Shown here: positions 45,812 to 64,000 of the stretch, piece by piece
Numbering within the stretch: position 1 is the first letter of the stretch
Layout: the number at the start of each line of letters is the position of its first letter
Source of the DNA: Escherichia phage CMSTMSU
Direction: 5' to 3' (one strand)
Length of the DNA stretch: 64,000 nt
Sequence record: MH494197.1
Program-made: the position numbers and the translations under genes
Notes under the pieces: model-generated
What the model was told of the DNA's origin: nothing
The model's database searches: none
The model's input: only the letters and a program-made list of their open reading frames with translations

Positions 45812-46014
45812 TTACTTTGGATCTCCTTGACTAATGCATCAACCCACATGTCTATATACATTTGTTGATAGTTTGTCCCTATGAGTGCCCTGCATAGAGT
45901 TCAGCTATCATTGCATGTTTTAGGTTGGCAGGATGCTCTTATCAGATTGAATCTTTACTCTTCTGTTGGCACATGTTTTCAGGAGTCTGATGTATTCAAA
46001 GCCTTGTAATTTTC

Positions 46015-46230
46015 TCATTCTTTAGATATCACCTTGTTACGTAAGGCACTTAACAATACGTCAGTGTAGATGTTTTGATAGTTTGTTCCTACGAAAGCAC
46101 CCAACTTCATTTCAGCTATTATAACACATTTGTCCTCTTGTGCAATAGACTTGTCTAAAGAAATACTAACAACTTTCCTTCTTATAGCTTGTAATCTCCA
46201 ATGATACTGATACTCATTTAGGGTTATCAT
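46015..46230 (-). CDS. family B paralog
   Basis: core FVGTNYQNIYTDVLL. Confidence 0.45.
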   Translation of the reverse strand: MITLNEYQYHWRLQAIRRKVVSISLDKSIAQEDKCVIIAEMKLGAFVGTNYQNIYTDVLLSALRNKVISKE

Positions 46231-46465
46231 TCTCTCGCCTCCATATCTCGGTTCTAATGTGTTGACATTGTGCTTCGATGAACATATCTATTGATTTGGC
46301 AATTGCGTTTTTATCTGTGCCAGTCATCAGTACAAGCATCTCGGCCTCACAGTGAAGTAAACGCATGATATCATAGGGTAATATTCCAGATACCGTGTCA
46401 TAGTGTTTCTGTGCCAGTGTCTGTAATAGTTTACAATACATTTTGTGATTTAGTCTGTGTCGCAT
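46214..46465 (-). CDS. family B-like paralog, degenerate
   Basis: LMTGTDKNAIAKSIDMFI in place of core. Confidence 0.35.
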   Translation of the reverse strand: MRHRLNHKMYCKLLQTLAQKHYDTVSGILPYDIMRLLHCEAEMLVLMTGTDKNAIAKSIDMFIEAQCQHIRTEIWRRENDNPK

Positions 46466-47587: not shown

Positions 47588-47770
47588 TTAAAAATGAATC
47601 CAATCGTCAACATACTCTTCCTGATGGTTTGTGTTCAGTACAGCCAACATGCGGATCTCTGCTCTTGCAACTTGGATTTCAGTTTTAGAAAGGTCTTTGC
47701 TGATATCAAACATTAAGTCCATGTATTTCAAGATAAGACCGAATGATTGGGTTCGTGTTATAGTTTTCAT
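47588..47770 (-). CDS. family B paralog
   Basis: core VLNTNHQEEYVDDWI. Confidence 0.4.
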   Translation of the reverse strand: MKTITRTQSFGLILKYMDLMFDISKDLSKTEIQVARAEIRMLAVLNTNHQEEYVDDWIHF

Positions 47771-47967
47771 TGTTTCCTCGTGGACAATATTTCATTTTTC
47801 AATGCATCCATATATTGAATCACCCATCTTCCCTGATAGCTTGTTCCCAATGTAATCAAAAGGTATAACTCAATTCGTTCTAAGTTTGTGTCTGTGTTAT
47901 AAATCTTTACCATGTTTTTACGTAACAGTTCTTGATAATCTTCTTTATTTAAAATACGCATTTTCAT
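47767..47967 (-). CDS. family B paralog
   Basis: MKMRILNKEDYQ start; core TLGTSYQGRWVIQYM. Confidence 0.45.
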   Translation of the reverse strand: MKMRILNKEDYQELLRKNMVKIYNTDTNLERIELYLLITLGTSYQGRWVIQYMDALKNEILSTRKQ

Positions 47968-48161
47968 AGTCTACCTTTTATGTCCCTTCGTAATTCTTGT
48001 AAGTATAGTTCGATATACTTTTCTTGATAGTTAGTTCCTATGAAAAGTTTCATAACCAATTCACGCTTATATGCAATACCACGGATATGTGACATATGTA
48101 GGATATATGCCATGTTGGATATGAGTGTGTGGTTGTGCTCTTCTTCAGTTAAAATACGCAT
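47964..48161 (-). CDS. family B paralog
   Basis: MRILTEEEH start; core FIGTNYQEKYIELYL. Confidence 0.45.
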   Translation of the reverse strand: MRILTEEEHNHTLISNMAYILHMSHIRGIAYKRELVMKLFIGTNYQEKYIELYLQELRRDIKGRL

Positions 48162-48877
48162 AGGGACTCCATTAAAAATAATATCAATCCCATAATATAC
48201 GATTCATATAAAAGTCAATAACATTTTATTCGTAATACCCTTTATCGAAGTCGCTAAGGTTACCCGCCCTTTAGCCCCTACGCATTTTGCCATAGTCCAA
48301 TCCTTTTATTCATAAAAGTCAAGGGATTACCTATGCATTTTTTAACGCTGAAGTTTAAAAATGCCTTGACTTTTTATGATTCAGTACTAAATCCTTTTAC
48401 GCATTAATCCTTCGTTACGCTTACGATTATCTGTGTATCCCCATAGTCCTGCCATACTTCCACGCCAGCCGTCGCCCGGTTAGTCGTGCTGTCATCTGCT
48501 TAATGGTCTTAGGCTTTAGTGGAACCTGTTGCAGTACTGTACGCATAGTATCATCGACGTTATCGTGTACGCCTGCAATAGTGCCTAGGACGCTGTATAC
48601 GTGTATAGAACATATGTATGCCCTCCTGATATAGTTAAGGCCGCTACAAGGCGGCCTATGATGTTTGGTGATGTGTAACGCTTACAGTCCTAAGATAGTG
48701 CGTGCTTCGTTACGTTCCGTGCACAGCTGCATGATGTGAGCAAGTAAGTCCTTGCTAATGTATCCGGTGTTCATAGCTTCACGAATAGATACATCATAAG
48801 CACCGAACCCGTGCGAACGATACGCACATCATTCAGGTTAGTATTATAGATACCGCCGAGATCAACGGCTTCGAATA

Positions 48878-49081
48878 CTACATCAACAGAATATTCATTG
48901 TTGCCATCGTGGAAGTTTTCCAGTGCAATAGTATTGGATACCGCCCAACGTTTGCAGTTTCAATGATGCGGCACTGTTCCGGTTGGATAGTGCCATTACT
49001 TACAGCGTACTCCAGTGCATCTTTACCAAAAGTCCGAGCCAGTACTAAAACGTCAGCGAAGGAAGTGATTGAGAAGGTCAT
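48878..49081 (-). CDS. hypothetical small protein (67 aa), probably continues beyond a frameshift
   Basis: ATG MTFSITSF... with AAGGAG SD directly downstream of a promoter/stem-loop cassette; the track merges it with the upstream gene because no stop intervenes. Confidence 0.4.
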   Translation of the reverse strand: MTFSITSFADVLVLARTFGKDALEYAVSNGTIQPEQCRIIETANVGRYPILLHWKTSTMATMNILLM

Positions 49082-49099
49082 GATAAAACTCCTTAATTT

Positions 49100-49161
49100 A
49101 GGAGGGAGAACCATTTCCTCTCTATGTAAAACATTATACATGAATCTAAGTACTATGCAAG
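49100..49161 (-). promoter_or_regulatory. PeSL-like cassette (promoter plus 5' stem-loop)
   Basis: minus strand TTGCAT - 16 nt - TATAAT, then short hairpin, then SD/ATG. Confidence 0.5.
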
Positions 49162-49164
49162 TAC

Positions 49165-49498
49165 TTTTACATTTTAATACCGGATTCAGGTAGCGGTGAG
49201 ATCCATATTCTGGATCGGTTTCGGTCCAGTACTGTAAATCGATAGTACCTTTCGCGTTAATCTTGTCTACCAGCTTATTCATCTTAGCGTATACTACGTC
49301 AGCATCGATGCGTTTAAAGCCAGTAGCTTTAGTGAAGTAGTAGTGATTTGCTTCACTATCATTAAGGATATACCGAGCACCGTTTGCCGTTTGTGCGATA
49401 ATGATTGAGTATTCTACGTTACGGTCGAGGCCGTCGATGAATACAGAGGAAACATTAGTACGGATGAAAGCTTTAACGATAGCGATTGAAGTAGTCAT
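49165..49498 (-). CDS. hypothetical protein, 3' end unresolved
   Basis: MTTSIAIVKAFIRTN...; reading frame runs through the downstream cassette without a stop. Confidence 0.35.
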
Positions 49499-49587
49499 TT
49501 TGAATCTCCTAACTTTGTGGGCCGTCGCACCATTGCCGCCCTACGAGATACATTATTGCAGTACTGATATACTTTGTCAATACTTTT

Positions 49588-49725
49588 TATTAATAGTTTT
49601 AGTTCCACCAGCAGATAGTTACTCACCGTTATTAACTATATATTTTGGATACACCTATGCACCCTGTGGGCTAGTTTTTGTCTATGCGTATATATAGCAG
49701 GACTGACCGAGTCAATCCCTTTTTA
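49588..49725. repeat. ~130 bp repeated intergenic element, copy 1
   Basis: shares ATGCACCCTGTGGGCTAG ... TATATAGCA(A)GGACTGACCGAGTCAATCCCTTTTT with copies at 52.3, 55.6 and 60.1 kb. Confidence 0.6.
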
Positions 49726-49956
49726 TTCTTTTTGTTAGATGATTCTCCAATCATCAACGATCATGGTAAGATACCGAACCAGTGATTCGAGTGATTCGTG
49801 TTCTCGATAGTCTGCCGCTCCACCAGCGGTACAAGTACAGCCGATTAAGCCGTTTTGTAGTTCCGGATCTTTACGTCGATCTGGTTGGCTTTAGCTTCTT
49901 TCAGTACTTCAACCGGGCGAGAGCGATAGACATAATGTTTTACTCCAAACTATTGG

Positions 49957-50016
49957 CGGGAGAACTATTCCCCGCTCTATGTAAAACATTATACATTACT
50001 GGTTAGTACTGTCAAA
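49957..50016 (-). promoter_or_regulatory. PeSL-like cassette
   Basis: TTGACA - 16 nt - TATAAT on minus strand, hairpin GCGGG...CCCGC just downstream. Confidence 0.55.
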
Positions 50017-50022
50017 TAGTTT

Positions 50023-50280
50023 TTATGAAATATCTTCGATGTAGTCGGCCCATTTCATTTTTTCAGTACTGTCAATGGCTACCGGATTATTTGGATCAAA
50101 CCATTCACCATTACCGCAGTACATACCCACGGCTACGGTTTTATAGCCATCCCGGGCCGCACACCACGACATTGCACGATAGATATGGCCTTTAACTGGT
50201 TGCAGTACTGGTAACGTTTTATGGTCTTCTACGTAGGCCATAGCTTGTGGATTTACCCGATATTGTGTGAACTGTTCCAT
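50023..50280 (-). CDS. hypothetical protein (85 aa)
   Basis: track ORF; promoter-like sequence upstream. Confidence 0.45.
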   Translation of the reverse strand: MEQFTQYRVNPQAMAYVEDHKTLPVLQPVKGHIYRAMSWCAARDGYKTVAVGMYCGNGEWFDPNNPVAIDSTEKMKWADYIEDIS

Positions 50281-50593
50281 TATGTTTCCCCTTGTAGTTA
50301 GTAAAGTTATTACATCAGTACTATCAAGCTATGTCAATAGTACTGAAATAAAACTTTTAGATTAGATTATTGAGGCCGTCAATGGTAGACTCACTTTCTT
50401 CTTTCTCCCATTGTCGGTAGTACTTCCATGCTTCATGATAGGTGGCGATCAGTTCATCTTTTGATCCGGTTACATGCCAGTACTGAATCACGGTGAGCGG
50501 TGTTATAGATAGAATCGAATGATTTCTTCTCTTCTGCCGTTAGCTACTTCCCGCATCAGTTCATCAAAGTTAGCCATTTTATTACTCCTTTTA

Positions 50594-50650
50594 GTGGGGA
50601 GGATATCTCCCTATGCAAAACATTATACTTTGTTTTAGTTATTATGCAAG
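50594..50650 (-). promoter_or_regulatory. PeSL-like cassette
   Basis: TTGCAT - 15 nt - TATAAT; hairpin GGGAG GATAT CTCCC. Confidence 0.5.
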
Positions 50651-50902
50651 TACTTTTTCATATAAACATTAAATTCTACACCGCCGTAACCTTCCACGAT
50701 GATATGTTTTGCGTTATCACGTTTGCACATAGTGAAACCATCGTTTACGTGTTTTGCATTTTCGGGCGACATCACCGATAGCGGCACATACGGCACTAAT
50801 AACAGTATTCCGCAAAGTACTGGTATCATTGGCGGTCATAGTAGTTTGCAGTACTACGTTGTCGTATACGTGTGCATTGATAGTGATTTCGATAGTGTTC
50901 AT
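50635..50902 (-). CDS. hypothetical small protein, frame-shifted
   Basis: ORFs 50717..50902 and 50635..50829 overlap in two frames and look like one gene. Confidence 0.35.
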
Positions 50903-50916
50903 GGTGTATCTCGACT

Positions 50917-50978
50917 GGCGGGAGAACTATTCCCCGCTCTATGTAAAACATTATACGTTAATCTAACTACAATGCAAG
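50917..50978 (-). promoter_or_regulatory. PeSL-like cassette
   Basis: TTGCAT - 16 nt - TATAAT; hairpin GCGGGAGAACTATTCCCCGC. Confidence 0.55.
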
Positions 50979-51233
50979 TACTTTTAAATTTTATTTCCGA
51001 TATAGTCCGGTCTATTCTTTTCGGTCATACGCTTTGCTAATGTTTGCATATGGCTTATTGCTTGTAGTGTATCCTCTTCCGGGATGAATCGAGATAATCA
51101 GGATCATTCTTCACCTTGCAATGATTATGATAGCGTAGTACTGCCAGTACTTTTTAACTTCTTCTACTGTCATAATAAGTACCCACTTCGTTAGCTTTCA
51201 GGTTAGTATCAATCATCAGTGGATTTTTGTAGT

Positions 51234-51440
51234 TCACAAAACGAGTAGTTTTCTCGATAGCGAATCCCATATAATCCAGCTTACTAACAGTACATTCATT
51301 CTTAAAACTTCTTTCGCTGCATCGATGGCTGATTGCATGGATAACCGACCATCTAAATTAATGTTTCCAAATGATCCACCAGCAGAAGTAGGATTACCGT
51401 TCATATCTTTAATGATCATAGTAGCGGAGTAGCTGGACAT
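51234..51440 (-). CDS. hypothetical small protein
   Basis: track ORF 68 aa; AAGGA SD; cassette immediately upstream. Confidence 0.45.
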   Translation of the reverse strand: MSSYSATMIIKDMNGNPTSAGGSFGNINLDGRLSMQSAIDAAKEVLRMNVLLVSWIIWDSLSRKLLVL

Positions 51441-51463
51441 AATTTTGTTTCCTTTTATTGGTG

Positions 51464-51520
51464 TGGGAGAACTATTCTCCCTTGATGTAAACTATTATAC
51501 AGTACTGATATACTTTGTCA
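51464..51520 (-). promoter_or_regulatory. PeSL-like cassette
   Basis: TTGACA - 16 nt - TATAAT; perfect hairpin GGGAGA ACTAT TCTCCC. Confidence 0.6.
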
Positions 51521-51559
51521 AATACTTTTATTCGCCCATATAGATTAGATTATCATCGC

Positions 51560-51930
51560 CTACATAGGATCGCAAACGTTGATTTCTTCGCAGTACTTCG
51601 TGAATACATCGCCATAGTGACCTAAACCACGATCCCAAAACCAGTTCCGTGACCTTCGCGGGTAAGGAACAGATCATGACCAGCTTGCTCATAACCGTAA
51701 TCAATAAACATACCGCGAACTACTTCCAGATCATTACCGTGTTTCTCAATGAAGCGAGAACATGCAATCACTGCCGCTTGATGGGCTTGCTCTGATAATT
51801 CATAATCTTCCGTAATCGCCGTTCTCATTGTGTACAGTACTGAATTGCATAGCTTCAATGTAAGCTACAACCATTGCAGCATGATTTTTATCGTTAGTGA
51901 TGTTCCGAGCGAGATTAGTAGTAGTAGACA
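51560..51930 (-). CDS. hypothetical protein, frame-shifted
   Basis: ATG MSTTTNLARN...; continues in two other frames through ...REGHGTGFWDRGLGHYGDVF... Confidence 0.35.
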
Positions 51931-51951
51931 TGATTTTATTCCTTTTAGTAT

Positions 51952-52009
51952 CGGGGAGAACTATTCTCCCTTGATGTAAACTATTATACAGTACTAATAT
52001 ACTTTGTCA
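51952..52009 (-). promoter_or_regulatory. PeSL-like cassette
   Basis: TTGACA - 16 nt - TATAAT; hairpin GGGGAGAACTATTCTCCC. Confidence 0.6.
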
Positions 52010-52254
52010 ATACTTAATTACGTTTAAAATGATATGTGCCTTTATCATCCTGTACGCCCCATACTGATTTACCATCAACACCAGTGAAGCCGGATTGTAA
52101 TTCAATATGGAAACCATTATTATCAACTACAAAAACTTTTTATTTTCATCCCGATAACATTGATATTCTGAATCAACATTAAAGGCCGCATCATTCAGAA
52201 GATTAGAAGCGTAAATGCAAGTCATTGTAGTCATGATTTTATTCCTTATTGCCG

Positions 52255-52308
52255 TGGAACCGTTCCTCTCGATATAAAACATTATACTTGATTCTAAGTA
52301 TAATGCAA
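52255..52308 (-). promoter_or_regulatory. PeSL-like cassette
   Basis: TTGCAT - 16 nt - TATAAT; hairpin GGAAC C GTTCC, stem sequence differs from other copies but pairing is kept. Confidence 0.55.
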
Positions 52309-52311
52309 GTA

Positions 52312-52446
52312 CTTTTTAAAATAGTTTTCAGTACTGAATACTTATATAATAGATACACTTCCGCACCCTATGGGTCAGTGAGTTATCTCTCAATGGATAT
52401 ATATAGCAAAGGACTGACCGAGTCAATCCCTTTTTAATCTTTTTAT
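52312..52446. repeat. ~130 bp repeated intergenic element, copy 2
   Basis: CGCACCCTATGGGTCAGTGAG...GGACTGACCGAGTCAATCCCTTTTTAATC. Confidence 0.6.
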
Positions 52447-52507
52447 CGTGTTACCTTACTTGCTGCCACATCACGCTTTTTATAGTACTGATTCCAGATA
52501 TTGCTGG

Positions 52508-52825
52508 TTAAACCGTAATCAAGTACTTTAATAAGTCCATTACGATCCCGCCGATATTCTGTTTTCTGATATCTCTTATCGTTAGTGTTGATAATGTATC
52601 ATCGACGTGTTGTAGTGCATCAGCAAAGCGGTGCTGGCGTTCAATGGCATTACGTTTAATATTGTACTTTAATTCATTGCACGCGTTTACGTGCTTTACA
52701 CTGCCTTTACTTGCAGTACTCAACCGATCCATAACGATAAACATATTATCAGGATCGCATAAATGCATATGCACCTTTGCAAAGTACTGTTTCAACTGAG
52801 GGCGGTCATAGTCTAAAAATTCCAT
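52508..52825 (-). CDS. hypothetical protein (105 aa)
   Basis: track ORF. Confidence 0.45.
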   Translation of the reverse strand: MEFLDYDRPQLKQYFAKVHMHLCDPDNMFIVMDRLSTASKGSVKHVNACNELKYNIKRNAIERQHRFADALQHVDDTLSTLTIRDIRKQNIGGIVMDLLKYLITV

Positions 52826-52891
52826 ACCTTACATTCAGTTTCATTTTGTTCGACACCCGCATCACAATTCGCGACCTTAATCACTAACCGA

Positions 52892-53080
52892 TCATTTAAA
52901 GCGAAAACTATACGGGAAGATCCGCCCGATGATCTCCAGTCCAGCTAACCGACAAGCTGAAAGGATCTCTTTGTTGGTTTCCATTTCTGACAGTGTACGG
53001 ATGAATTTAGTATAATTACGCATTGCATGTTCTCCTTGAGTTAATGAAACTATATTACAGTACTTTACTATCAATGGCAA
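52892..53080 (-). CDS. hypothetical small protein
   Basis: track ORF 62 aa. Confidence 0.35.
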   Translation of the reverse strand: MPLIVKYCNIVSLTQGEHAMRNYTKFIRTLSEMETNKEILSACRLAGLEIIGRIFPYSFRFK

Positions 53081-53296
53081 CTACTTTTTAACATTAACGG
53101 CGTGAATCACTTCCTTAGTGTTTTTAGTACTGAATACTTTCGCCGCTCCTTGTTCGACCGTGATACGATAGCGACCATTAACATCAACCATATTAATAAA
53201 GTCCGGCGTGCTGAATGGTGTTGTTTTGCATTTGAGTACTGTTAACAGTTCCACCAGCGATGTAGTTTCTTTGATACGTTTTTCTAAAGTAATCAT
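53081..53296 (-). CDS. hypothetical small protein
   Basis: track ORF 71 aa; promoter-like repeat upstream, also found before the next gene. Confidence 0.4.
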   Translation of the reverse strand: MITLEKRIKETTSLVELLTVLKCKTTPFSTPDFINMVDVNGRYRITVEQGAAKVFSTKNTKEVIHAVNVKK

Positions 53297-53434
53297 TTTG
53301 TTTCTCCCCGTGTTGGTATGTACATATAGTACTAAAACATTTGAGTACTGTCAATTAGATAATATTATATTTCTTAAAATAAAATGCGTCTTGTGTTGGT
53401 TGATACTCGATACCGTTACCGTTATTGACTTCAA

Positions 53435-53629
53435 CTAATAAACCTTTGTCAATAAGTTTTTAATAGTACGATACCCTTGTTGAAAATTGGTAAAATGTGA
53501 ATCATTACGAAAGGTATAACCGTGCTTAACTGCTTCATCAATAGTTTTCTTTTCGATTTTAGATAATTTCATTTTGTTTCTCCCGTGTTGGTATATGTAC
53601 ATAGTACTAAAACATTTGAGTACTGTCAA
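53435..53629 (-). CDS. hypothetical small protein
   Basis: track ORF; likely start at internal MKLSKIEKK with GGGAGA SD. Confidence 0.4.
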   Translation of the reverse strand: MTVLKCFSTMYIYQHGRNKMKLSKIEKKTIDEAVKHGYTFRNDSHFTNFQQGYRTIKNLLTKVY

Positions 53630-53890
53630 CGTGATATTAGTTTTATTTTCTTATTGTATTGTTGATGCTCATAAAGGTTTATCTTTCCTGTGTTCTCGAT
53701 TACTATCCTGTTGTTAGTGTCCACATCGATTACACGCAGTTTCCGTTGCTTAACTTCCGGGTAATAGGTTACCATTAATAAACTCATTAGCAAGCTGTAC
53801 GGCCTTTGTGATGATTCTCTTCGGTGCTTTATAGTGTACCCGTAAGATGTTATCTTTATATAGTTGAACCTTAATCATTTTGTTTGTCCT

Positions 53891-53916
53891 ATAAAAAGGC
53901 GGGAACTGATCCCGCC
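53891..53916 (-). terminator. rho-independent terminator (minus strand)
   Basis: stem GGCGGGA/TCCCGCC, loop ACTGA, followed by U-run in minus transcript. Confidence 0.6.
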
Positions 53917-54423
53917 GTGTTGTTAGTACTGCAAGTTATTAGATAACCGGCGGCGTTTACTGTATACTGTTACACGATTACCCTTACGGTCGTGTCGGAT
54001 CTCTTTCTGGTTGCGAATCAGTTCACTTGGACGCTTAAGGTTTGCCGTGATCCGCGTGAGTCCATGCATTGGCATTTACCTGTACTTTGATATCAGAACC
54101 AGCGATAAACTCATCTTGTGCGTCAGTATTGCCGCCAGCATATCCGCTCGTTTTAGTTCTGCTGCTGTTAGTACTGGCTCAGGTGAATTCACAATATCAG
54201 AGATCTTTGAACTGTACGGCCCAGCGTTGGCCTTTCGGTGCATCTTTGCCCATGTCTTTAAATGCTGCTCCTTCCTCGCGTGCAACAATACGGGCAGCTT
54301 CACGGGTAGCGTAGAATTTAGTAATCATGGTATACATCCTATTAGTTAAGTTAGTACTACAAGTTAGAGTCTATTATAAAGTACTATCTGGGCAATGTCA
54401 AATAGTACTTTAAATGGATTCTA

Positions 54424-54745
54424 TTACATGTCTTTCTTACGTTTTACATCGTGGTAGCGAACTGTTATTTCTTTGTTGATCTCTTCCTCGATGCGGTGAA
54501 TAACTTTTTCTTTCGGGTTGAAACCTATAACGGTTTCTTTAATGATCTCAAGCCCGTGTATTCGCCTTGTGTACCGTAACCGTATGTAAAGGTTTCGTGT
54601 CCCGTGTCTTCCAGCGGTCGCCAATTAACGCAGACACGTAGCAAGAGTGGTAAGTATTGCCGTGTGAATCAGTCCACCGATTAACGTTAATGTCAAAGGA
54701 GGTTACAATTTTCAATTCTACTTTCTGGGCAAGGATCATAGCCAT
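54424..54745 (-). CDS. hypothetical protein, frame-shifted
   Basis: MAMILAQKVELKIV...NVNRWTDSHGNTYHSCYVS; two overlapping track ORFs. Confidence 0.4.
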
Positions 54746-54764
54746 TTTATTTCTCTCTTTTAGT

Positions 54765-54825
54765 TAGGAGGAACCATTCCCTCACTTGATGTAAACTATT
54801 ATACAGTACTAAGATACTTTGTCAA
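54765..54825 (-). promoter_or_regulatory. PeSL-like cassette
   Basis: TTGACA - 16 nt - TATAAT; hairpin in 5' leader. Confidence 0.55.
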
Positions 54826-54843
54826 TACTTATTTTTGGAAAGT

Positions 54844-55008
54844 TTACGCATTAATTCTACGCTTTCTTGTGAACGTTTTGCTACCGGCAAGCTGCATGGG
54901 TAGTAAACATTTTGTATAGTCTGACGCTTTGCCACCGAACCGAGCGGCACGTTCACGGGCACTTGGAACTAATACTATTTCTTTCTTGCAGATAGTGCAC
55001 TTAGCCAT
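54844..55008 (-). CDS. small Cys-containing protein (54 aa)
   Basis: MAKCTICKKEIVLVPSARERAARFGGKASDY...; own cassette upstream. Confidence 0.4.
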   Translation of the reverse strand: MAKCTICKKEIVLVPSARERAARFGGKASDYTKCLLPMQLAGSKTFTRKRRINA

Positions 55009-55027
55009 TTTATTTCTCTCTCTTTGT

Positions 55028-55089
55028 TAGAGGGGAACCGTTTCCTCACTCGATGTAAACTATTATACAGTACTAAGATACTTTGTCAA
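55028..55089 (-). promoter_or_regulatory. PeSL-like cassette
   Basis: TTGACA - 16 nt - TATAAT; hairpin GGAA ACGG TTCC. Confidence 0.55.
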
Positions 55090-55093
55090 TACT

Positions 55094-55366
55094 TAATTAT
55101 TGTAAATGTCGTGAATAGTGATAAAGTTTTTACGACCGTAAACCTGCAAATCAATATCAATGTAGTGCTTATCTAGTACATCCTCGACGCTTAACGCGGT
55201 GTCGTGGATATCTTCGTAGAATTGAGTATCTACAATCTTGCTTAAGTCATCCGGCGTTAACTCATCGTTAAGCAGTTGAACCGCCGGATATCTGCTTCAC
55301 GTTTCCAGTCTTCCAGTTAGTAGTCAGTACTTGTTCGATTTCGTTAGCTGTCAGTAGAATCCGCAT
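55094..55366 (-). CDS. hypothetical protein, frame-shifted
   Basis: MRILLTANEIEQVL... then ...LLNDELTPDDLSKIVDTQFYEDIHD... in another frame. Confidence 0.35.
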
Positions 55367-55547
55367 TTTTATGTTTCCTTATCAGTGGTTGATGTAAGTA
55401 TTATACTCGTTTACTTTCTATTGTCAAACTATTTTATCAGGGAGTTTTTCGTATGTCTTACTCGACTACTTAACGGGGTTACTTGTTTCGTTCCCCGTCC
55501 TGATGTAAAACATTATACTTGATTCTAAGTACAATGCAAGTACTTTT

Positions 55548-55670
55548 TAAAAATAGTTTTCAGTACTAGCCACCAGCAAACAATAGATACATTTATGCAC
55601 CCTGTGGGCTGATTTGTTTCTATGCGTATATAATAGCAAAGGACTGAATCCCTTATTCAATTATTTTTAA
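55548..55670. repeat. ~130 bp repeated intergenic element, copy 3
   Basis: ATGCACCCTGTGGGCTGA...TATAATAGCAAAGGACTGAATCCC. Confidence 0.55.
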
Positions 55671-55816
55671 ACTTCTTTCGGGTTGCGATAGGTGATAGCG
55701 TTCGGGTACATTTGTTTAATGTTATTCCATGCCCGGTTGACATTGTAACCACTTGATCGAATCAGTTGGTTACTACCGACACCTTGAAACACTACTTCGA
55801 ATAAGAATTCTTTCAT
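55668..55816 (-). CDS. small hypothetical protein (49 aa)
   Basis: MKEFLFEVVFQGVGSNQLIRSSGYNVNRAW... Confidence 0.3.
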
Positions 55817-56286
55817 GCTTTCACCTCGCGATCTGCTTTACCTTTACGCCGACATTACTAATTGTTCGCGTTGCCATAAGTCGAGTGATACAAAAGTTTT
55901 GCGGTATCACTTTTAGGATACTCGCCATTAGTACCTAACCGATAAAACAGATCTTTCAGTACTGATAATTCTACTTGGATCATTATACTTTCTCTTTGTT
56001 GGGAGGGAACTATTCTTCCGATATAAAACATTATACACTTTATTCAGTACAAGTACTTTTAATCTTTCAGCCAATGATCCTGAATGAATTTTTCACCGGA
56101 ACCTTGCTGCATTGATTGTAACAGACGTTCACGATGAGCGGCGGCGAATTGCTCAGTACTATGCGTTACACCGGTTGATATCTGGATTCACCATTGGGGC
56201 TGATGTATTGTACATCCCACGGTTTTTCGTTAGTATCAGACCATTTACGAACGATTAGTTGACCTTGCATTTTTCTTTCTCTTAGT

Positions 56287-56346
56287 GGGGAGAATCATTT
56301 CTCCCCTTCATGTAACTTATTATACAGTACTAGATTATCTTGTCAA
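56287..56346 (-). promoter_or_regulatory. PeSL-like cassette
   Basis: TTGACA - 16 nt - TATAAT; perfect 8 bp hairpin GGGGAGAA TCAT TTCTCCCC. Confidence 0.6.
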
Positions 56347-56351
56347 TAGTT

Positions 56352-56636
56352 TTATTCACCTTGTTTGAATTTAGTTTTCTCCATTGATTCCATGATTGCA
56401 ACCAATACGCCGTGGATCTCGCTTAACGCGGAATCACTAAAAGCATTAATGAATAGTCGATCATTCTCGCGAATATTTTTAATGTACTTTTCAGCAGTAG
56501 TTGCGAATTCATTCAACGGTAGATCAAATGCTTTATCCCATGATGGATGGCGTAATTGTAACAGTACTGGATTATCACGATCACGGGAAAACGTACCAGT
56601 GATGAAACATACGCCCGAATACTTTCGAACTGGCAA
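56352..56636 (-). CDS. hypothetical protein (94 aa)
   Basis: track ORF. Confidence 0.45.
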   Translation of the reverse strand: MPVRKYSGVCFITGTFSRDRDNPVLLQLRHPSWDKAFDLPLNEFATTAEKYIKNIRENDRLFINAFSDSALSEIHGVLVAIMESMEKTKFKQGE

Positions 56637-56959
56637 CGGACTTCCTTTGTGATAGTAGTATGAATGTACATTTATTGTTATCCTCTATTAAATTAATATT
56701 ACAGTTTATGAATCAATTCTTTATCTAAGCGATAGCGTACATTATTAATAGTAACGGCATTGTTTTAATGCTACGCTGTACAGGTCCACCAGCAATAACA
56801 AATGTTGCTTTATTACCCCGAACAATGATAGCACTTCCGTGATTACCGAAATCATCTTGTACTAAAATACTTGATAAGTTTTCCATTTTATTTCTCTTAG
56901 TAGGGAAGATGTTTCCTTGATGTAAGTACTATAACAGTACTGAAAACTAATTGCAAGTA

Positions 56960-57313
56960 CTATGATAAAATCATGATAGGATATTCACTATCGATCAGTA
57001 CCTCGAATCCGAACCCTTCGTACCATTCTTTAAGATTAAAGGCGTTATCTTCTCCGTATCGCATTCTAAGATGATACAATCTGAATCATCAGCGGCATCG
57101 ATAAAGGCATTCATTAATTCGTTACCTTCACCATTGCCCCGACTATCAGGATCAACATAAAGAGAATCAATGAAAGCAACACGGTCATAATCAAGATCCG
57201 GTGCAATGATTCCACGTTTAACAAACCAGTACTGCAATTGTGCTACTTTGCTGTACCTGATAACCAGTGATCTCGCCATTGTCAGTAGTACGCGTGATAT
57301 GTTGTATTCCCAT
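56960..57313 (-). CDS. GNAT-family N-acetyltransferase-like small protein, frame-shifted twice
   Basis: acetyl-CoA-binding motif ...VDPDSRGNGEGNELMNAFIDAA... and C-terminal ...EWYEGFGFEVL... readable across three frames. Confidence 0.5.
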
Positions 57314-57962
57314 GATTTCTATCCTCAGTTAAGATATAAAACATTATACACTATCTTTCAGTACTGTCAATTACTTTTATCTCATAGATCTATGCCAACA
57401 ATTACGCGGATCTCTTTAAAAGTACTATCATGATCCTCCGGCAAGTAATACAATACATGCACCTATAACGGCCCGGCGTCGATTCTCAGGGATTTTACCG
57501 CCGCAGTCGAGGCAATGTACAGTGATTCTCTTTGTGCGTTAATTTGCTTTCTAGCGTGGTTAACGGCGGCCTGAATCACTGCGTTAATCTCGTCTTGTTC
57601 GGCCCCGTCTTTCGCGAATCCTACAGCCATTATTTTAACCTCATTATAAAAATACTATAGTACTGTAATGCTACAATAATACTACTAGTGCTAATCTTAT
57701 TCAAACCACATGATACTACATATCCACCAGCATTACCACGGATAGTAACGCCTTTGTACTGTCTATATAAATTCAACTGCGTATATTGCCTTTGATCAAG
57801 AATTGATCAGAATTATACGCCTTATGCTAAATTGATCCAGTACTTTTGATCATTTATTGATCGATGTTATATAGTTACATTTGTGCACCCTATGGGTTAG
57901 TGACGTTCTCGTCTTGATGTAAGTATTATGCCAGTACTGGAGGATATTGTCAATAGATTATT

Positions 57963-58160
57963 TTAATTTTTTCTATCATTAATTAATGCTTTCAGTACTA
58001 TACTAATAACTTGCAATGATTCATCAATGACAATGAAATTATTCTCTTTCATTAGATGATAGTTACCATTGATTGTATATTCTAACGAGTACTGTTTACG
58101 TTTAATTTTTGATAATGTTTCTATTTGTTTTTGTACTGATTTCATGCTAATCATTGTCAA
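57963..58160 (-). CDS. hypothetical small protein
   Basis: track ORF 65 aa. Confidence 0.35.
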   Translation of the reverse strand: MTMISMKSVQKQIETLSKIKRKQYSLEYTINGNYHLMKENNFIVIDESLQVISIVLKALINDRKN

Positions 58161-58983
58161 ACGTCCTGTAACGCATTCTAACGAGATAAACGGTTGAGTA
58201 CTGGCATTGTATAGGGTAATGATTAAAGCCCACCAGCGTTAACCAGTGGGCTATAATCTTACATCTTGCGGATAATCTTAACAGTATCTTTCACCGATTT
58301 ACCGTTTTGCTGACATTGCTCGATCATCGCGTATTGTTCTGCGGTCAGATCCTCGCCAGTTTTTGCCAGTACTGCGTCGATGAATGAATCCAGTGCGATC
58401 ATTTTGTTTCTCTCTTAGGTTAAGTTAACTACTGTTTATAAAACTTATTATACAGTACTATCAAACTATGTCAATAGTACTGGTAATATATTTTAGCGGT
58501 AGTCGTCGTATGCTTTATTCACGGCGAATATAACTTTCAAAGGCTTCGTCTACCGTTTCATACTCCCGAACATAATCACCATATGAAACTACATACATAC
58601 CTTTTGATCTTCAAACGTCATGATGATAGAATCCAGACCAACGATTTCAGTTTTTGCGATGATAGCCATTTTTAATTCCTTAGTAGTGTAGTTGATAAAA
58701 GTTATTATGTCAGTACTATCAAACTATGTCAATAGTACTGTGATAATATTTTAGTTAATGATAGTCAGTGTAAAATTGTAATCCCCTGCCCGTATAGTAC
58801 TTTATCGCCGAACGTTCCAACACGTTTCATATTGCAATAGATACCCATAACACTTTTACATCTTTGATATTCCGAACGCCAGTAATATCCTTGTTTAAAT
58901 GATCGTGATCAGAAAATAAAACTTGTTTTGCATTTTTCAGTACAGTGCAGATATTAGCCATTTTGTTTTCTCTTCTGTTAGTG

Positions 58984-59041
58984 GGGAGAAGTTTTTCTCC
59001 CTTGATGTAAACTATTATACAGTACTATAATCTATTGTCAA
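58984..59041 (-). promoter_or_regulatory. PeSL-like cassette
   Basis: TTGACA - 16 nt - TATAAT; hairpin GGGAGA AGTTTT TCTCCC. Confidence 0.6.
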
Positions 59042-59414
59042 ACTATTTTTTATATTATTCGAAATCTTCTGGACCGGACTGATAATCATCTTCACCGTAT
59101 GCACTTTCTAACCGCTCGCCAGTGCAATCATCAGTTAGTGAGTCATCCTCATAGTTCACGTCTACGCCAGTGATGTAAAACTGGCTATCGTCTGGATCAT
59201 TGAAATTAATTTTCTGGATGTTTACAATAACTGTATTGATGCCGTGACACCGCCATCAGCCGTTACAAAGTACTGATATTTTTCACAACCGCCTGAATTG
59301 AAACCGTAATTAATTTCGGCCCGACCATCACTTAAACGCAGTGTCTGAGCGATGATTTCATTTTCAAAGTTAGATTGAGCAATTGCAATAGTCATGATTT
59401 GTTTCTTATTATCA

Positions 59415-59471
59415 GGGAAACCGTTTCCCTTTCGATGTAAAACATTATACGCTTATCAGGAAGTAATGCAA
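59415..59471 (-). promoter_or_regulatory. PeSL-like cassette
   Basis: TTGCAT - 16 nt - TATAAT; hairpin GGGAAA CCG TTTCCC. Confidence 0.55.
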
Positions 59472-59957
59472 GTACTATTTCACGTTAATTTCAAAGTACT
59501 GCTCTTTGATGTTTTCCTGTTGGTAAATCTCGTTTAATGCTTTAAGATCTAAAACCTGTTTACCTGCTGCCTGAATATACTTTTAAGAGTCGCTAACAGC
59601 TTCTCAGGCGTGTTTGTAGTCTTACGTGTTGGGATCTTATCGTGCCCCATAGCGTAGTACTGCTTACGTGCTATAGTACTGATAACACTGCGGTACGGTT
59701 CCATGATCAGCTTGTCTGTATTCGTCGCTATCCCCAAACTTCATACCGTGGATCGCAAAGGTCATCATCATGCGGTCGTTATCGCGGATATTGTGGGGCA
59801 GTCGGCAAGCTCGCGAGTCAGTGACATAGTGATCCCCACGTCGCCACCCAGCGGTAAAGGTCGGGCGATAAAGAAACCGTTAGGGAATACTTTCAGGAAG
59901 TTTTCTTGAACTGCTGCGACGAATTCGATGCTATTCATAATTCATTTCCTTAATTAG

Positions 59958-60015
59958 TGGGGAAGTTGTTTCCTCTTGATGTAAAACATTATACGCCTAT
60001 TGAGATAGTTTGCAA
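59958..60015 (-). promoter_or_regulatory. PeSL-like cassette
   Basis: TTGCAA - 16 nt - TATAAT; hairpin GGAA GTTGT TTCC. Confidence 0.5.
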
Positions 60016-60032
60016 GTACTTTCTACAAATAC

Positions 60033-60160
60033 TTTTAAAATAGTTTTCAGTACTCAATACTCATATAATAGATACACTTATGCACCCTGTGGGCTAGTGA
60101 GCTATCTCTCAATGAATATATAATAGCAAAATGGCTGACCGAGTCAACCACTTTTTCATT
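60033..60160. repeat. ~130 bp repeated intergenic element, copy 4
   Basis: ATGCACCCTGTGGGCTAGTGAGCTATCTCTCAATGAATATATAATAGCAAAATGGCTGACCGAGTCAACC. Confidence 0.6.
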
Positions 60161-60271
60161 TATTTTAGCTTTTAGAATCGCCGCCTTTCGCGTCATGCCT
60201 TGCTTGATGTATTCTGTACTTTCGCTTTACGTGCATTCGCTTTATTTGCTTTCGTAAACGCCGAACAACTT

Positions 60272-60580
60272 TTATAGTTTAAACCTGTTGGATTCATTTA
60301 AATCACCATAAAGAATAGATAGGTTACTAACAACGCCGCGATCAATGCACCGACCGAACTGTAATAAGCTAATGATCTCATTTTTAGCCTGAAAATAATG
60401 TTTAATTTGAGCGGCGGTCAGTGCACAATTACGCAGGAAGTTTTCTGTATAACTTTTGCGAGTACTGAAAGAGAATTGACCTTTGCTGCTGCCGATAGTA
60501 ACATCAAACCGAGCGTTGTATTGTTTCATTTTGTTTCTCCTGTTATTGGGGAGAATCATTTCTCCCTTCATGTAAAACAT
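60272..60580 (-). CDS. hypothetical protein
   Basis: track ORF 102 aa; probable start at internal MKQYNARFDV. Confidence 0.4.
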   Translation of the reverse strand: MFYMKGEMILPNNRRNKMKQYNARFDVTIGSSKGQFSFSTRKSYTENFLRNCALTAAQIKHYFQAKNEIISLLQFGRCIDRGVVSNLSILYGDLNESNRFKL

Positions 60581-60605
60581 TATACAGTACTAAAACTAAT
60601 TGCAA
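60548..60605 (-). promoter_or_regulatory. PeSL-like cassette
   Basis: TTGCAA - 15 nt - TATAAT; hairpin GGGGAGAATCATTTCTCCC, identical to copy at 60771. Confidence 0.55.
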
Positions 60606-60770
60606 GTACTATTTTTAGATTTACGCAAACTTTCTACCATCTCAGGAGTAAGGTCTGCGGGTAGGAAACTACTTCATCAACGAAACGTAAAGGAATACCC
60701 CAGCGAAAGGTGAACGTGCTTTCTTAGTATTACTCTTTTTGATGCTTTCATTTCATATTCTTAATTAGTG

Positions 60771-60827
60771 GGGAGAATCATTTCTCCCTTCATGTAAAAC
60801 ATTATACGCGTTTAAAACTAATTGCAA
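60771..60827 (-). promoter_or_regulatory. PeSL-like cassette
   Basis: TTGCAA - 15 nt - TATAAT; hairpin GGGGAGAATCATTTCTCCC. Confidence 0.55.
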
Positions 60828-61691
60828 GTACTATTTGAAAGTAAATGCTCATACGCTACATTAACTACGTTTTCAATAACCGACTGTACAGAAAGATCCC
60901 CACTTCCGGCTATAGTAGAAATCGCTTACAGTAGTGTCATCGTATGCAAATACTTTACCGTGACTGCATCAATCACATACATATTAACCTTTAAGATGTC
61001 GATCTTATCCTGTACAGTAAGCATATTAATTAACCTTTTAAGTACTGACTTAAGTAATCTTGTTGATCTTCGGTGATTGCAGCCATCTTCCCTAGTACTG
61101 GATTAATGATATAATCCCTGTAACGTCCTGTAACGCATTCTCAGGCGGTTTAACGGCTGGGGTAGCCATAGCCATTGCCGACTTGTTCGACGCTGTAACG
61201 CTCATAAAGGCGGCATTCTTCCGGTGTTAACATAGCATCAATGCGTTTCATTGGTTTAATGATGCTTTCGATCTCATTCAGTACTTGATTAACGTTCATG
61301 GTATAATCCCAATATAAGCGGCCTAAATCGACCGCTAACGATGTTTTGATTAATAGGTGTATGGTTGACGTTCAAACAATGATTGCACGTTGTACGCCCC
61401 GCTTATGGGCTTTGCTGGTAAATCAATTTTATATTGTTCACGCTTAAAGATAATAAAACGGCAATTGTTTTAACATCAAAATTGATTGAACGTTCCGAGT
61501 TTACCATCGTGCACAAATACAAGATAACCGCTCGCTACTTGTTTTGTAGTACTGGTTGCAACCATAGACCGCCGAACATGTGTACCTGCGTCGATTAAAG
61601 TACTGATATTTTTCATTTTACTATCCTCTTAAGTTGATTTAATTTCTTTCCCTATGCAGACACTGTACCAAAGTATCTGCATAAAGTAAAG

Positions 61692-62013
61692 CTAATTAAA
61701 GATCTTTTTACGTTTTACATCCTGTACAGTACAATGCAACGGGATAGACAAATCATTGCACAAACGATAGAGGGAGGTTTCATCAGTATTAAGCCCGTCT
61801 ACTGATTCCTTTAAGAGAGATAACGCCGTTTGTTGGTATGCATCTTCATAGCCATAAGTAAATGATTCAACCGCCAGATCATTCAAGCCGTTATCCAGTT
61901 CGACGCTTACATGACAAGAATGATGTATTGCCATATGAATCAGACCAACGTTTACCGTCAACATTGATTGCACGGATTGCAGCCGAAACGGTGTTAATGA
62001 TAGTTTTAGCCAT
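61692..62013 (-). CDS. hypothetical protein, frame-shifted; paralog of 54424..54745
   Basis: MAKTIINTVSAAIRAINVDGKRWSDSYGN then ...HHSCHVSVELDNG...; shares RW-x-DS-x-GN-x-YHSC-x-VS with 54424..54745. Confidence 0.4.
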
Positions 62014-62263
62014 TTTAGTATTCCTTAAATTAATATGTGTCGTCTTGATAAAATCTATTATGCCAGTACTATCAAACTATGTCAATAGTACTGTGATAAT
62101 ATTTTTACTTACTTTTTGCTTTCTTTATTGCTTCCACCGGTCGGCCCATTCTTTACCCCATACTTGTAAATTATAATGGTACTGGCAAAGTGCAACGCCC
62201 CGCTTTAAACCAGTAATAGATTTTTACCACATTGACAAGTTTTCATTTTAGTTTCCTTGTAGT

Positions 62264-62321
62264 GGGAGAACCATTTTCCCCTTGATGTAATGTATTATAC
62301 TTTATTCGATTTACTTTGCAA
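62264..62321 (-). promoter_or_regulatory. PeSL-like cassette
   Basis: TTGCAA - 16 nt - TATAAT; hairpin GGGAGAACCATTTTCCC. Confidence 0.5.
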
Positions 62322-62338
62322 GTACTTTTTAATTTAAT

Positions 62339-62551
62339 TCATCCGTAAAGGATACGCTCAACGCCCAAATCAGTTAAACTAATCGACGGCACTTGATAGG
62401 TTTCAATGTATGCTACACTTGCCCACTGACCGAACTCATTAACGGCCGTATTCATTGCATTTTGCAATTCCACACCTTCCTTGTTGGTAATGACTGCAAC
62501 TACTTGTTCGTTGCCAGTAGTACCAGATACGCGAGTAATGATAATAGCCAT
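62339..62551 (-). CDS. hypothetical small protein
   Basis: track ORF 70 aa. Confidence 0.4.
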   Translation of the reverse strand: MAIIITRVSGTTGNEQVVAVITNKEGVELQNAMNTAVNEFGQWASVAYIETYQVPSISLTDLGVERILYG

Positions 62552-62986
62552 TTTTTAATTCCTATTCAGTAGTTGATGTATGTATTATGCCAGTACTTAA
62601 AACTATTGTCAAACTATTTTTAAAGTTTATCAATGATTGATGCCGTTTCATTGATAGTCTTGCCGTGTTTTGCACACGCGATAACTGCTTTAAATTCCTT
62701 TGATGACCAATCTTTCTTACTGCATACTGACATTACTTGTAAAGTAAAACAATCCAGTTCATAAGTATTCATCTTTATATCCTCAGTTAGTTAAGGTGTC
62801 TGCCTTGATGTAATTAATTATACGCTAATCTCTTAATCGTGCAAGTACTTTTATTACTTTTTGCAAAATACTTTAAACGCTCTCAATCGCATTACAACGA
62901 CCTTAACGCCACCAGCTAGGCAATGCATCAGATAATCAGTTTAAAGCGTTAGAATCGTTTCTAGGCGGTGCTGGTGGCGTAAACGA

Positions 62987-63015
62987 TAAAAAAAGCCCAC
63001 CGTTTAAGGTGGGCT
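62987..63015 (-). terminator. rho-independent terminator (minus strand)
   Basis: 8 bp GC-rich stem AGCCCACC/GGTGGGCT, loop GTTTAA, followed by 7 U in minus transcript; 13 nt downstream of stop at 63028. Confidence 0.7.
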
Positions 63016-63027
63016 AGTGATTCAGTT

Positions 63028-63406
63028 TTATGCTTCAACTTTGCGATGAGCTTCGATCCATTCCTCGCGAGTCATACCACTGGAGTTAATCGCGTCCAGT
63101 ACTACCGCAATGCAGTTACCACGCACCGGAATCAGATATTCTTCCCGTTGTACTACCGCTACGCGTTCCTGAATCCATTTTTGGCTTTTACTTCTGGCTT
63201 GTCTTCCCATACTTAACCGCCGTGGCTTTTGTGCCATCTCTGTAACTACTTCCAGATCCAACTACTGCCGCCTGAATACTTTCGATTGTTGCTTGTAGTT
63301 CTGCTTCACGGGCCGCCTTTGCCGCTTCAATTTCTGCCGCTTTATTTGCTTGTAGTTCTTTCGCAGTACTGTAAGCGATGTTAAAATTATTGCGTACCGC
63401 TTTCAT
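63028..63406 (-). CDS. hypothetical protein, frame-shifted
   Basis: overlapping ORFs 63188..63406 (Ala/Glu-rich, coiled-coil-like) and 63028..63261. Confidence 0.35.
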
Positions 63407-63690
63407 GGTATCGTTATCCAGTTCAGCCGGATCTCAGCCGCGACGTTAGTTTCATTTGCACCAGTGCTTTGATGAATGATTTTACATTAGCCATTTTATA
63501 AATCCTCAATTAAAGTTTAGTTTACGTTTATTAGTGTATCAAAGTTTTCTGACGTGTCCAGTTTTTCGTTCGACTTACTGGCGGTCTACTTAGTGCTCCC
63601 CGTCTTGATGTAATACATTCTACGCCTTTTTGCGGTAATGTCAACTACTTTCTTAAAACTATTTTCAAAGTATCTCAGTACTACGATACT

Positions 63691-63717
63691 ACAAAACAAA
63701 AAGCCCACCCGTGGGCT
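63691..63717 (-). terminator. rho-independent terminator (minus strand)
   Basis: stem AGCCCAC/GTGGGCT with U-rich tail in minus transcript. Confidence 0.55.
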
Positions 63718-64000
63718 GTATTAATCAGTAAGTAAAATATTAAACACTTTACCATTTAACGTTATTGGTGCACTGCTACCGTGCTCAAGATCCGTTAGTA
63801 TACCTGCAATCGCTTTATCATTGGCGACCTTTCCAGTGTCCAACAGTACGACAGTACTGATAAGATTAACGCTCGTTTCAATATCATAATGCACGGCGTT
63901 AAGGAGTTGTGTATACTGCTTTCGTTAAGTAAAACTATTCGTGCTGTCATGATGTACCCGTAGTATCTATCAACGGCAATTAATAACGCCGGAATGCGTT

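Follow-up and report, generated by a model that had tools for sequence, protein, structure and literature searches.

Three hairpins sharing an AGCCCAC/GTGGGCT stem are probable intrinsic terminators in the early-gene array of an Asteriusvirus jumbo coliphage

The 64,000-nucleotide stretch of Escherichia phage CMSTMSU analysed here (record MH494197.1; hereafter the window) contains three inverted repeats with identical 7-nt arms, AGCCCAC/GTGGGCT, at positions 58227-58252 (hairpin C), 62994-63015 (hairpin B) and 63702-63717 (hairpin A). We read these hairpins as Rho-independent terminators of a minus-strand early-gene array in an Asteriusvirus jumbo coliphage, with a probability of about 0.85. 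This reading is built on their anatomy, strand, position, conservation pattern, copy number and exchange events and on the generic use of the same stem elsewhere; from these we infer termination, its efficiency and read-through at hairpin C. A previous sequence-only reading of the same DNA had reported three hairpins with one stem and suggested that they form a shared protein-binding or structural module. The three hairpins do exist, and the intervals given for B and A were exact, while the first, placed at 58211-58248, has to be moved to 58227-58252.

The strand and position of the hairpins carry the assignment. On the plus strand as written, runs of A precede the hairpins; the U-tracts therefore belong to the minus strand, which is the coding strand here. 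The U-runs that had earlier given two of the hairpins the look of terminators are accordingly real for A and B once the strand is corrected to minus, and in a consensus scan B and A come out as terminator-like, on the minus strand alone, with C not listed. The hairpins start 3 nt (A), 12 nt (B) and 6 nt (C) after the stop codons of minus-strand open reading frames (ORFs), and their orthologues in phage G17 leave a gap of 7-22 nt from the stop codon; at all three sites the G17 record (MK327931.1) annotates the orthologous hairpin as a 'putative transcriptional terminator' on the basis of ARNOLD. The features expected of an intrinsic terminator are found accordingly: a GC-rich stem of about 5-14 bp with a short loop on the transcribed strand (6-7 bp at A, 8 bp at B and 11 bp at C), a U-tract directly 3' of the stem at A and B, and a place after a stop codon where a transcription unit would end. 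A and B are each then followed by the next promoter, at 58 nt and about 150 nt downstream respectively. ORFans unrelated to one another precede A, B and C, and the flanking genes are ORFans as well. A duplication of terminators along with paralogous upstream genes was considered and rejected, as the likeness is confined to a 43-nt cassette and the genes are unrelated.

Hairpin B (62994-63015, minus strand) reads AGCCCACC-UUAAAC-GGUGGGCU and lies 12 nt past the stop codon (63028-63030) of the homologue of G17_00042. Its 8-bp stem contains six GC pairs and has a predicted folding energy of -15.7 kcal/mol (z = -5.3). The U-tract on the minus strand (62988-62993) consists of six U, or seven if the paired U at 62994 is included. 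On its other side the hairpin is bordered by the 5' flank AACTGAATCACT (63016-63027, minus strand), part of a 14-nt flank, AGTACTGAATCACT, that moves with the hairpin as the 43-nt cassette in relatives. The promoter downstream of B is a member of a promoter cassette family. Between B and this promoter there is also a 9-bp inverted repeat, GCCACCAGC ... GCTGGTGGC, at 62909-62917 and 62970-62978, its halves 52 nt apart; this repeat is kept in phage TH47, and strings resembling GCCACCAGC occur near 55570 and within hairpin C.

The quality of the window sequence bears on how hairpin A is to be read. Positions 57500-64000 are 90-96% identical to Asteriusvirus jumbo coliphages (fEgEco12, G17, 121Q, PBECO4, SP27 and about 70 further records), and by its sequence the source phage is an Asteriusvirus jumbo coliphage of the 121Q/PBECO4/G17 group. 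The counterpart of this region in fEgEco12 lies at 5.5-11.6 kb, within a direct terminal repeat whose length of 20,993 bp is experimentally supported (PMC13070987), and the record of vB_Ec-M-J labels the same stretch 'Direct Terminal Repeats'. The last 15 kb or so of the window is an array of tiny minus-strand ORFan genes, nearly all hypothetical, inside this terminal repeat of about 21 kb; most of these small genes are each preceded by a perfect or near-perfect sigma70 promoter (TTGACA-16/17-TATAAT), and the promoters fall into repeated cassette families that include a hairpin in the 5' untranslated region (5'-UTR). Scans of the whole window against Rfam at gathering thresholds and for tRNA and tmRNA gave no matches. 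Compared with fEgEco12, the 6.5 kb from 57500 to 64000 carry about 70 deletions of one or two bases and almost no insertions, and nearly all of these deletions sit in homopolymers or in CC(A/T)GG (Dcm) sites. Such a pattern is the signature of uncorrected nanopore-type errors in an unpolished assembly and probably extends throughout the window. Comparison of the ORFs with those of G17 and fEgEco12 ascribes the many broken ORFs of the window to these uncorrected deletions, examples being 63028-63406, which corresponds to the 483-nt G17_00042, and 59055-59395, which corresponds to G17_00031; the lengths of T-runs may likewise be under-read. The sole stretch of 57500-64000 without alignment to fEgEco12 is 59480-59932, both edges of which fall in promoter/5'-UTR cassettes (families D3 and D5), an arrangement that fits gene replacement between repeated regulatory cassettes.

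Hairpin A (63702-63717, minus strand) reads AGCCCAC-GG-GTGGGCT in the window, its stem-loop beginning 3 nt past the stop codon at 63721-63723 of the upstream ORF. The U-tract that follows on the minus-strand RNA is UUUUGUUUUG (63692-63701), and a sigma70-type promoter, TTGACA-16-TAGAAT (63617-63644, minus strand), would restart transcription after the 58-nt interval. In the form read in the window the hairpin folds as AGCCCA-CGGG-UGGGCU with a predicted energy of -8.8 kcal/mol. Ten relatives read the site as AGCCCACC(T/A)GGTGGGCT, a sequence containing CCWGG, with the U-tract UUUUU(U)GUUUUU. Since the relatives carry CCWGG at this place and the deletions of the window cluster at CCWGG sites, the short form AGCCCACGGGTGGGCT is probably a base-calling error, and the true hairpin A probably has a 7-bp stem with a 3-nt loop. 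In TH47 (MT446416.1) an extra ORF starting MEWKQLKENPLYEISEYGDVRRYG... lies between terminator A and the next promoter; an assignment made only by eye likens it to an HNH/NUMOD4-type homing endonuclease.

Hairpin C (58227-58252, minus strand) reads AGCCCACUGGU-UAAC-GCUGGUGGGCU and begins 6 nt past the stop of the ORF at 58259-58402. On the minus-strand RNA it forms an 11-bp stem that includes three G·U pairs, available on this strand only, and closes with a 4-nt UAAC loop; the 12-nt loop described earlier was the product of a plus-strand reading, while the remark that the hairpin lacks a U-run was fair in that the U-tract is poor (tail UUUAAUCAUU). Because of the G·U pairs, hairpin C with its flanks folds 7.5 kcal/mol better on the minus strand (-25 kcal/mol, z = -6.7) than on the plus strand (-17.5 kcal/mol). 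The stem is followed by an interrupted U-rich tail, UUAAUCAUUACC (58215-58226, minus strand); with this tail the hairpin is not listed by the consensus scan, whereas ARNOLD annotates the G17 orthologue and looser scans report C. The first gene downstream is 57963-58160 (minus strand; phrog_36844). No sigma70-type promoter was found between C (58227) and this gene, which for that reason appears to depend on read-through. Hairpin C is thus probably a leaky terminator or attenuator, at which partial termination would lower the expression of the genes downstream. The flank-extended helix of about 20 bp was considered as a conserved structure in its own right and rejected, the flanks being without covariation. 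By inspection, a 20-nt exact repeat, AGAATGCGTTACAGGACGTT, is present on the minus strand at 58160-58180 and 61125-61145, one copy just upstream of the start of gene 57963-58160 and the other inside the homologue of G17_00036.

A comparison of 14 phages separates what is fixed in these hairpins from what is exchanged. The orthologues come from GenBank phage records; a search of IMG/VR with the 160-aa protein encoded between A and B gave only the contig of 121Q. At A, B and C alike the 7-bp arms do not vary, apart from one arm base in TH47 at B. For the eighth pair at B the window has C-G, and 121Q, BF17, E9.1, vB_Ec-M-J, EC22.5-2 and ph0011 have U-A; in the commonest loop type it is an unpaired C/A. 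At C the hairpin is invariant in seven phages apart from a single change in TH47, which turns a G·U pair into A-U. The variation of the eighth pair at B and the TH47 change at C both fit base pairing within a minus-strand RNA. The loops vary freely by comparison. At A they are CTG/CAG, CTTAAACA, TGTGTATA and TATAAGGA, and at B CTTAAACA, CTTAAACG, TTATACA, TGTATAA, TGCATAA and TTCTTATA; the arms stand 2-3, 7-8 and 12 nt apart, depending on the site.

Three comparisons demonstrate exchange of DNA. In G17 an identical 43-nt block, AGTACTGAATCACT-hairpin-TTTTTGT, stands at both A and B between unrelated genes, and by copy count the same is true of PBECO4, slurp01, Sharanji and JP4; the cassette was found only in 24 Asteriusvirus records. 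Phages of the G17 type thus carry a promoter and the 160-aa ORFan between two identical 43-nt direct repeats. The very closely related Salmonella phages SD-1_S14 and SD-2_S15 differ, over 100 nt around A, in the 8-nt loop alone, and the loop of SD-1 is that of B, which indicates patch conversion between A and B. At B, the loop TGTATAA of E9.1 and vB_Ec-M-J is the exact reverse complement of the TTATACA of BF17 and 121Q, the flanks being 94-95% identical; the loop of EC22.5-2, TGCATAA, is one mismatch from TGTATAA, and that of ph0011 is, by inspection, the reverse complement of the A loop of 121Q with one mismatch. A 76-aa gene present in fEgEco12 and the window and missing from G17 has one end of its indel at hairpin A, the other end falling at no hairpin. 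On these alignments A and B are paralogues whose identity is maintained by exchange of DNA, and C is probably a further paralogous copy of A/B. Loops that are swapped and inverted between invariant stems therefore point to terminators that evolve in concert and not to a binding site that depends on a specific loop or spacing.

The frequency of the motif was assessed both in the window and beyond. Counting both strands, the heptamer occurs 11 times in the window as compared with 1.9 +/- 1.4 in shuffled sequences, none of 100 shuffles reaching 11. Six of these matches make up the three hairpins, three (49666, 55604 and 60089) belong to copies of a repeat of about 130 bp, and two (2221 and 15636) are isolated. 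For a genome-wide motif search the complete 352-kb sequence of a relative, EC22.5-2, was assembled, in which the heptamer occurs 16 times, with about 12 expected. Ten of the 16 lie in one stretch of about 19 kb, where they fall in the three hairpins, in three copies of the 130-bp element and, in one case, at 30851; the other six are scattered over some 330 kb outside the terminal-repeat region of about 20 kb, at or below the level of chance. The motif is for this reason a local feature and not a genome-wide one. The sequence-only reading had itself proposed such a search, with a chance frequency in the full genome as the outcome that would speak against the motif; in EC22.5-2 this is what is seen outside the cluster, whereas the cluster itself is enriched. 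Hairpins of this type number exactly three in the 352 kb, all within 5.5 kb, and allowing one mismatch per arm adds no hairpin in the window or in the whole genome of EC22.5-2.

The stem is at the same time widely used in other phages. A scan of IMG/VR for AGCCCAC-N2-16-GTGGGCTTT returned at least 120 loci. Among the matches listed, 117 of the 120 loci are on unrelated contigs with a GC content of 0.28-0.67, and at least three further T occur in the next 5 nt in 103 of 152 instances where 17 would be expected, an excess that marks the listed hairpins as real terminators; many of them carry UUCG-type loops or are bidirectional. Judged from these sequences, AGCCC...GGGCU is a generic base of the enterobacterial terminator and the shared stem is not a recognition code. 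Recurrent stem families are moreover general in the genome of EC22.5-2, where a census of terminator-like hairpins gave 128 hits: the stem GCCAGTACU...AGUACUGGC is present in about 16 copies, GGrUUGACUCyGGUCAGyCC in nine, AGCCCAC in three and GGCGGG...CCCGCC in two. The sharing of one stem by A, B and C is thus accounted for by a generic AGCCC/GGGCU terminator base together with paralogy and concerted evolution.

The proposal of a shared binding module can now be weighed. Under it the hairpins would be RNA elements recognised by a phage regulator, as in boxB/nut or RegB systems, or else palindromic DNA operators to which a dimeric protein binds, and it draws on the identity of the 7-nt arms at three sites and their invariance in 14 phages, as well as on the enrichment of the heptamer in the window. 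An operator of fixed geometry is however incompatible with half-sites whose spacing differs from site to site, and an RNA-binding protein would be expected to hold its loop constant, whereas loops, including the UAAC apex of C, show no such conservation and are swapped or inverted between close relatives that retain the site. A genome of 352 kb (EC22.5-2) offers only three copies, all three hairpins sit exactly where terminators are expected, and among the IMG/VR matches listed more than 100 unrelated viral contigs have terminators built on this stem. Lambda offers a point of reference: its nut boxB hairpin, GCCCU-GAAAA-AGGGC, is bound by the N protein and needs a conserved purine-rich pentaloop to function. 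The likeness lies in a short GC-rich RNA hairpin starting GCCC in an early phage transcript; here loop length runs from 3 to 8 nt, loops have been inverted or exchanged for others, U-tracts follow the hairpins, and no N-like context was seen around them. With copy number, spacing, loop exchange and generic use of the stem all pointing away from it, we regard a binding or structural module as very improbable. Independent origin of three terminators that came to share a stem by coincidence or convergence has several points in its favour: the AGCCC/GGGCU base is generic, the stem is common in unrelated phages, families of three with a common 6-nt core arise often in simulation among 128 hairpins, and C has no convincing likeness to A or B outside the stem. 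The 43 nt that A and B have in common in G17, PBECO4, slurp01, Sharanji and JP4, with the 14-nt flank and the loop among them, refute it for these two hairpins, and patch conversion between the two is demonstrable; the confinement of all three to 5.5 kb of a 352-kb genome, with an expected count for this core of 0.28, speaks against it more generally, and coincidence for the whole set seems quite improbable.

For C taken separately a role in mRNA processing or stability is the main competing reading, either as an RNase III-type site or as a protective 3' or 5' hairpin in a polycistronic early transcript. The helix with its flanks reaches about 20 bp and is as stable as described above, and RNase III substrates cover a range of helix lengths that includes about 20 bp. 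The interrupted U-tract, the lack of a separate promoter for the downstream gene and the invariance of the hairpin across relatives would suit such a role too. The flank pairing on which the long helix depends is nevertheless not conserved, as fEgEco12 has an uncompensated G to U change in the 5' flank and the T insertions of the 3' flank differ among relatives; in addition ARNOLD scores the G17 orthologue as a terminator, and the stem and the initial UUU are of the same make as in A and B. We consider a processing or stability element at C unlikely.

Several observations count against the assignment of all three hairpins as terminators and as a related set, and it is these that set its limits. 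Our literature search for Asteriusvirus transcript maps, 3' ends or terminator studies returned only in silico predictions in related phages such as CBB. The stems are almost without compensatory variation, so that covariation support amounts to one pair, and the window version of A is weak (z = -1.0), though probably a sequencing artefact. The stricter U-tract requirement of the consensus scan excludes C, whose tail is also able to pair with the upstream GUAAGAUUAU (58253-58262) to give the helix of about 20 bp; such pairing is unusual for an efficient terminator. The common ancestry of C with A and B leans weakly on clustering and on the resemblance of the TTAAC and TTAAAC loops. Finally, in 64% of simulations three or more of the 128 hairpins share some 6-nt core; a three-member stem family is on this simulation not significant by itself, and the case for relatedness lies in the extended identity and the clustering.

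If the hairpins are intrinsic terminators, host RNA polymerase would make minus-strand early transcripts through the terminal-repeat array, and on transcription of the GC-rich inverted repeat and the U-tract the nascent hairpin would form in the RNA exit channel, with the weak rU:dA hybrid then allowing release of the transcript. B would act as a strong canonical terminator and A, in the form seen in relatives, as a canonical one, each closing an early unit with a fresh promoter next. At C the long stem with its G·U pairs, the interrupted U-tract and the lack of a promoter before the next gene would lead to partial termination, that is, attenuation. Patch gene conversion and loop inversion, acting through the perfect arms and the microhomology of the flank, would keep the arms perfectly complementary.

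Among known systems the closest are the intrinsic terminators of E. coli and its phages, including G17 (MK327931.1), which have the same GC-rich stem-loop, direct U-tract and position after the stop codon; the AGCCCAC/GUGGGCU stem also recurs in the terminators of many unrelated phages. C alone differs, by its interrupted U-tract, its three G·U pairs and the pairing of its flanks, and would be at best weak. A more distant likeness is to the PeSLs (promoter-early stem-loops) of T4-type phages, repeated cassettes of a sigma70-like early promoter and a terminator stem-loop in ORFan-packed regions (Arbiol et al., 2010, PMC2839356; Comeau et al., 2014, PMC4122927), in which the stem-loop is typically found between the -35 and -10 boxes or overlapping the latter, often as polyG/polyC (PMC2839356). 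The likeness would lie in regulatory repeats at the borders of ORFan units that can be shuffled; within the compared Asteriusvirus set, one of the two ends of the 76-aa gene indel falls at A, a loop was converted between A and B, and the replacement at 59480-59932 is bounded by cassettes. The geometry differs, as the AGCCCAC hairpins A and B stand 58 nt and about 150 nt upstream of the next promoter and C has none; PeSLs occur in many copies as against three here, though ORFans flank these hairpins and repeated promoter cassettes abound in the region; and the present phage is not T4-like and is compared here by its sequence. With a stem-loop that is not integrated with the promoter, filing the AGCCCAC hairpins as PeSLs was rejected. 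It is a tentative and somewhat doubtful suggestion from the alignments that A, B and C might serve as recombination modules, their arms and the 14-nt flank providing microhomology for patch conversion, loop flip-flop and the gain or loss of a promoter plus ORFan, in what would be a functional analogue of PeSLs outside the T4-like phages. Minute inversions of palindrome-flanked hairpin loops are documented in chloroplast spacers such as trnH-psbA (Whitlock et al., 2010; PMC2903610) and show the same picture of a loop in both orientations between perfect arms with collinear flanks, as in TGTATAA and TTATACA at B. Here the genome is of another type, the hairpin is a predicted terminator and loops are exchanged between sites as well; the inversion would, we infer, proceed by template switching or recombination between the arms.

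The 130-bp element, which the sequence-only reading had linked to the hairpins, proved to share with them seven identical bases only. It is present in four copies per genome, all in the terminal-repeat part, which in the window lie on the minus strand at about 49600-49745, 52315-52455, 55540-55680 and 60030-60175. Each comprises a terminator-like hairpin embedding a -35-like TTGACT, a TATTAT -10 box, the core AGCCCA(C/T)NGGGTGC...TGTATCT and the UP/-35 region of the next promoter; the core is strongly conserved and the 5' arm occurs in two subtypes. In the element AGGGTGC comes directly after AGCCCAC, a GTGGGCT partner is missing and the repeat has a different layout, and RNAalifold gave no stable consensus structure of the element that includes AGCCCAC. 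A decayed half of a terminator was also considered and rejected: the segment resembles AGCCCAC(N)GGGUG but has neither a complementary arm nor a U-tract. A link between the 130-bp element and the hairpins is thus not supported by these sequences.

Other repeats of the region were noted in passing. Terminator-like hairpins of the form GGrTTGACTC(C)GGTCAGyCC followed by TTTGCTAT(T)ATAT lie at 60132-60150, 52411-52429 and about 49700-49720; they embed a -35-like TTGACT 16-17 nt upstream of a -10-like box, as a composite of terminator and promoter, and are closer to the geometry of PeSLs than the AGCCCAC hairpins are. The nine copies in EC22.5-2 form two clusters at opposite ends of the genome (including 340-347 kb). 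A minus-strand cassette of about 60-90 bp is repeated in more than 13 copies in 49000-62900 (for example at 60529-60616 and 58964-59051) and consists of AGTACT and a -35 box, TATAAT, GTTTTACATCAAG and a GGGGAGAA...TTCTCCCC hairpin just before the Shine-Dalgarno sequence. Its layout suggests a strong early promoter, and the 5'-terminal leader hairpin might serve to make the mRNA more stable. In the window the palindrome AGTACT is found 240 times where 17.7 copies would be expected (about 14-fold, or one per approximately 267 bp), in genic and intergenic positions alike, and is entirely lacking at 32,047-40,838 and 42,881-48,383. It is built into the promoter cassettes, the 14-nt flank of A/B and the 16-copy or so terminator family GCCAGTACT...AGTACTGGC of EC22.5-2; a full-text literature search for AGTACT together with jumbo phages found nothing. 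By extrapolation from fEgEco12 (repeat 1-20,993) the inner edge of the direct terminal repeat is expected at about 48.5 kb in the window, near the end of the AGTACT desert and the onset of the array of small genes and promoters.

The hairpins are ordinary, being predicted terminators whose counterparts the G17 record already annotates, and the candidate module is removed from the unexplained features of this DNA without opening a new question; what is mildly new is confined to a terminator cassette that evolves in concert and whose loop is inverted. For annotation the value of the hairpins is that three early transcription units would end at them, within a terminal repeat that probably enters the cell ahead of the other DNA, and they suggest that the gene after C, and possibly a DksA-like gene further downstream, may be expressed by read-through only. 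They provide a small example, in a jumbo phage, of the evolution of terminators at the DNA level and of regulatory cassettes that delimit shufflable ORFan units.

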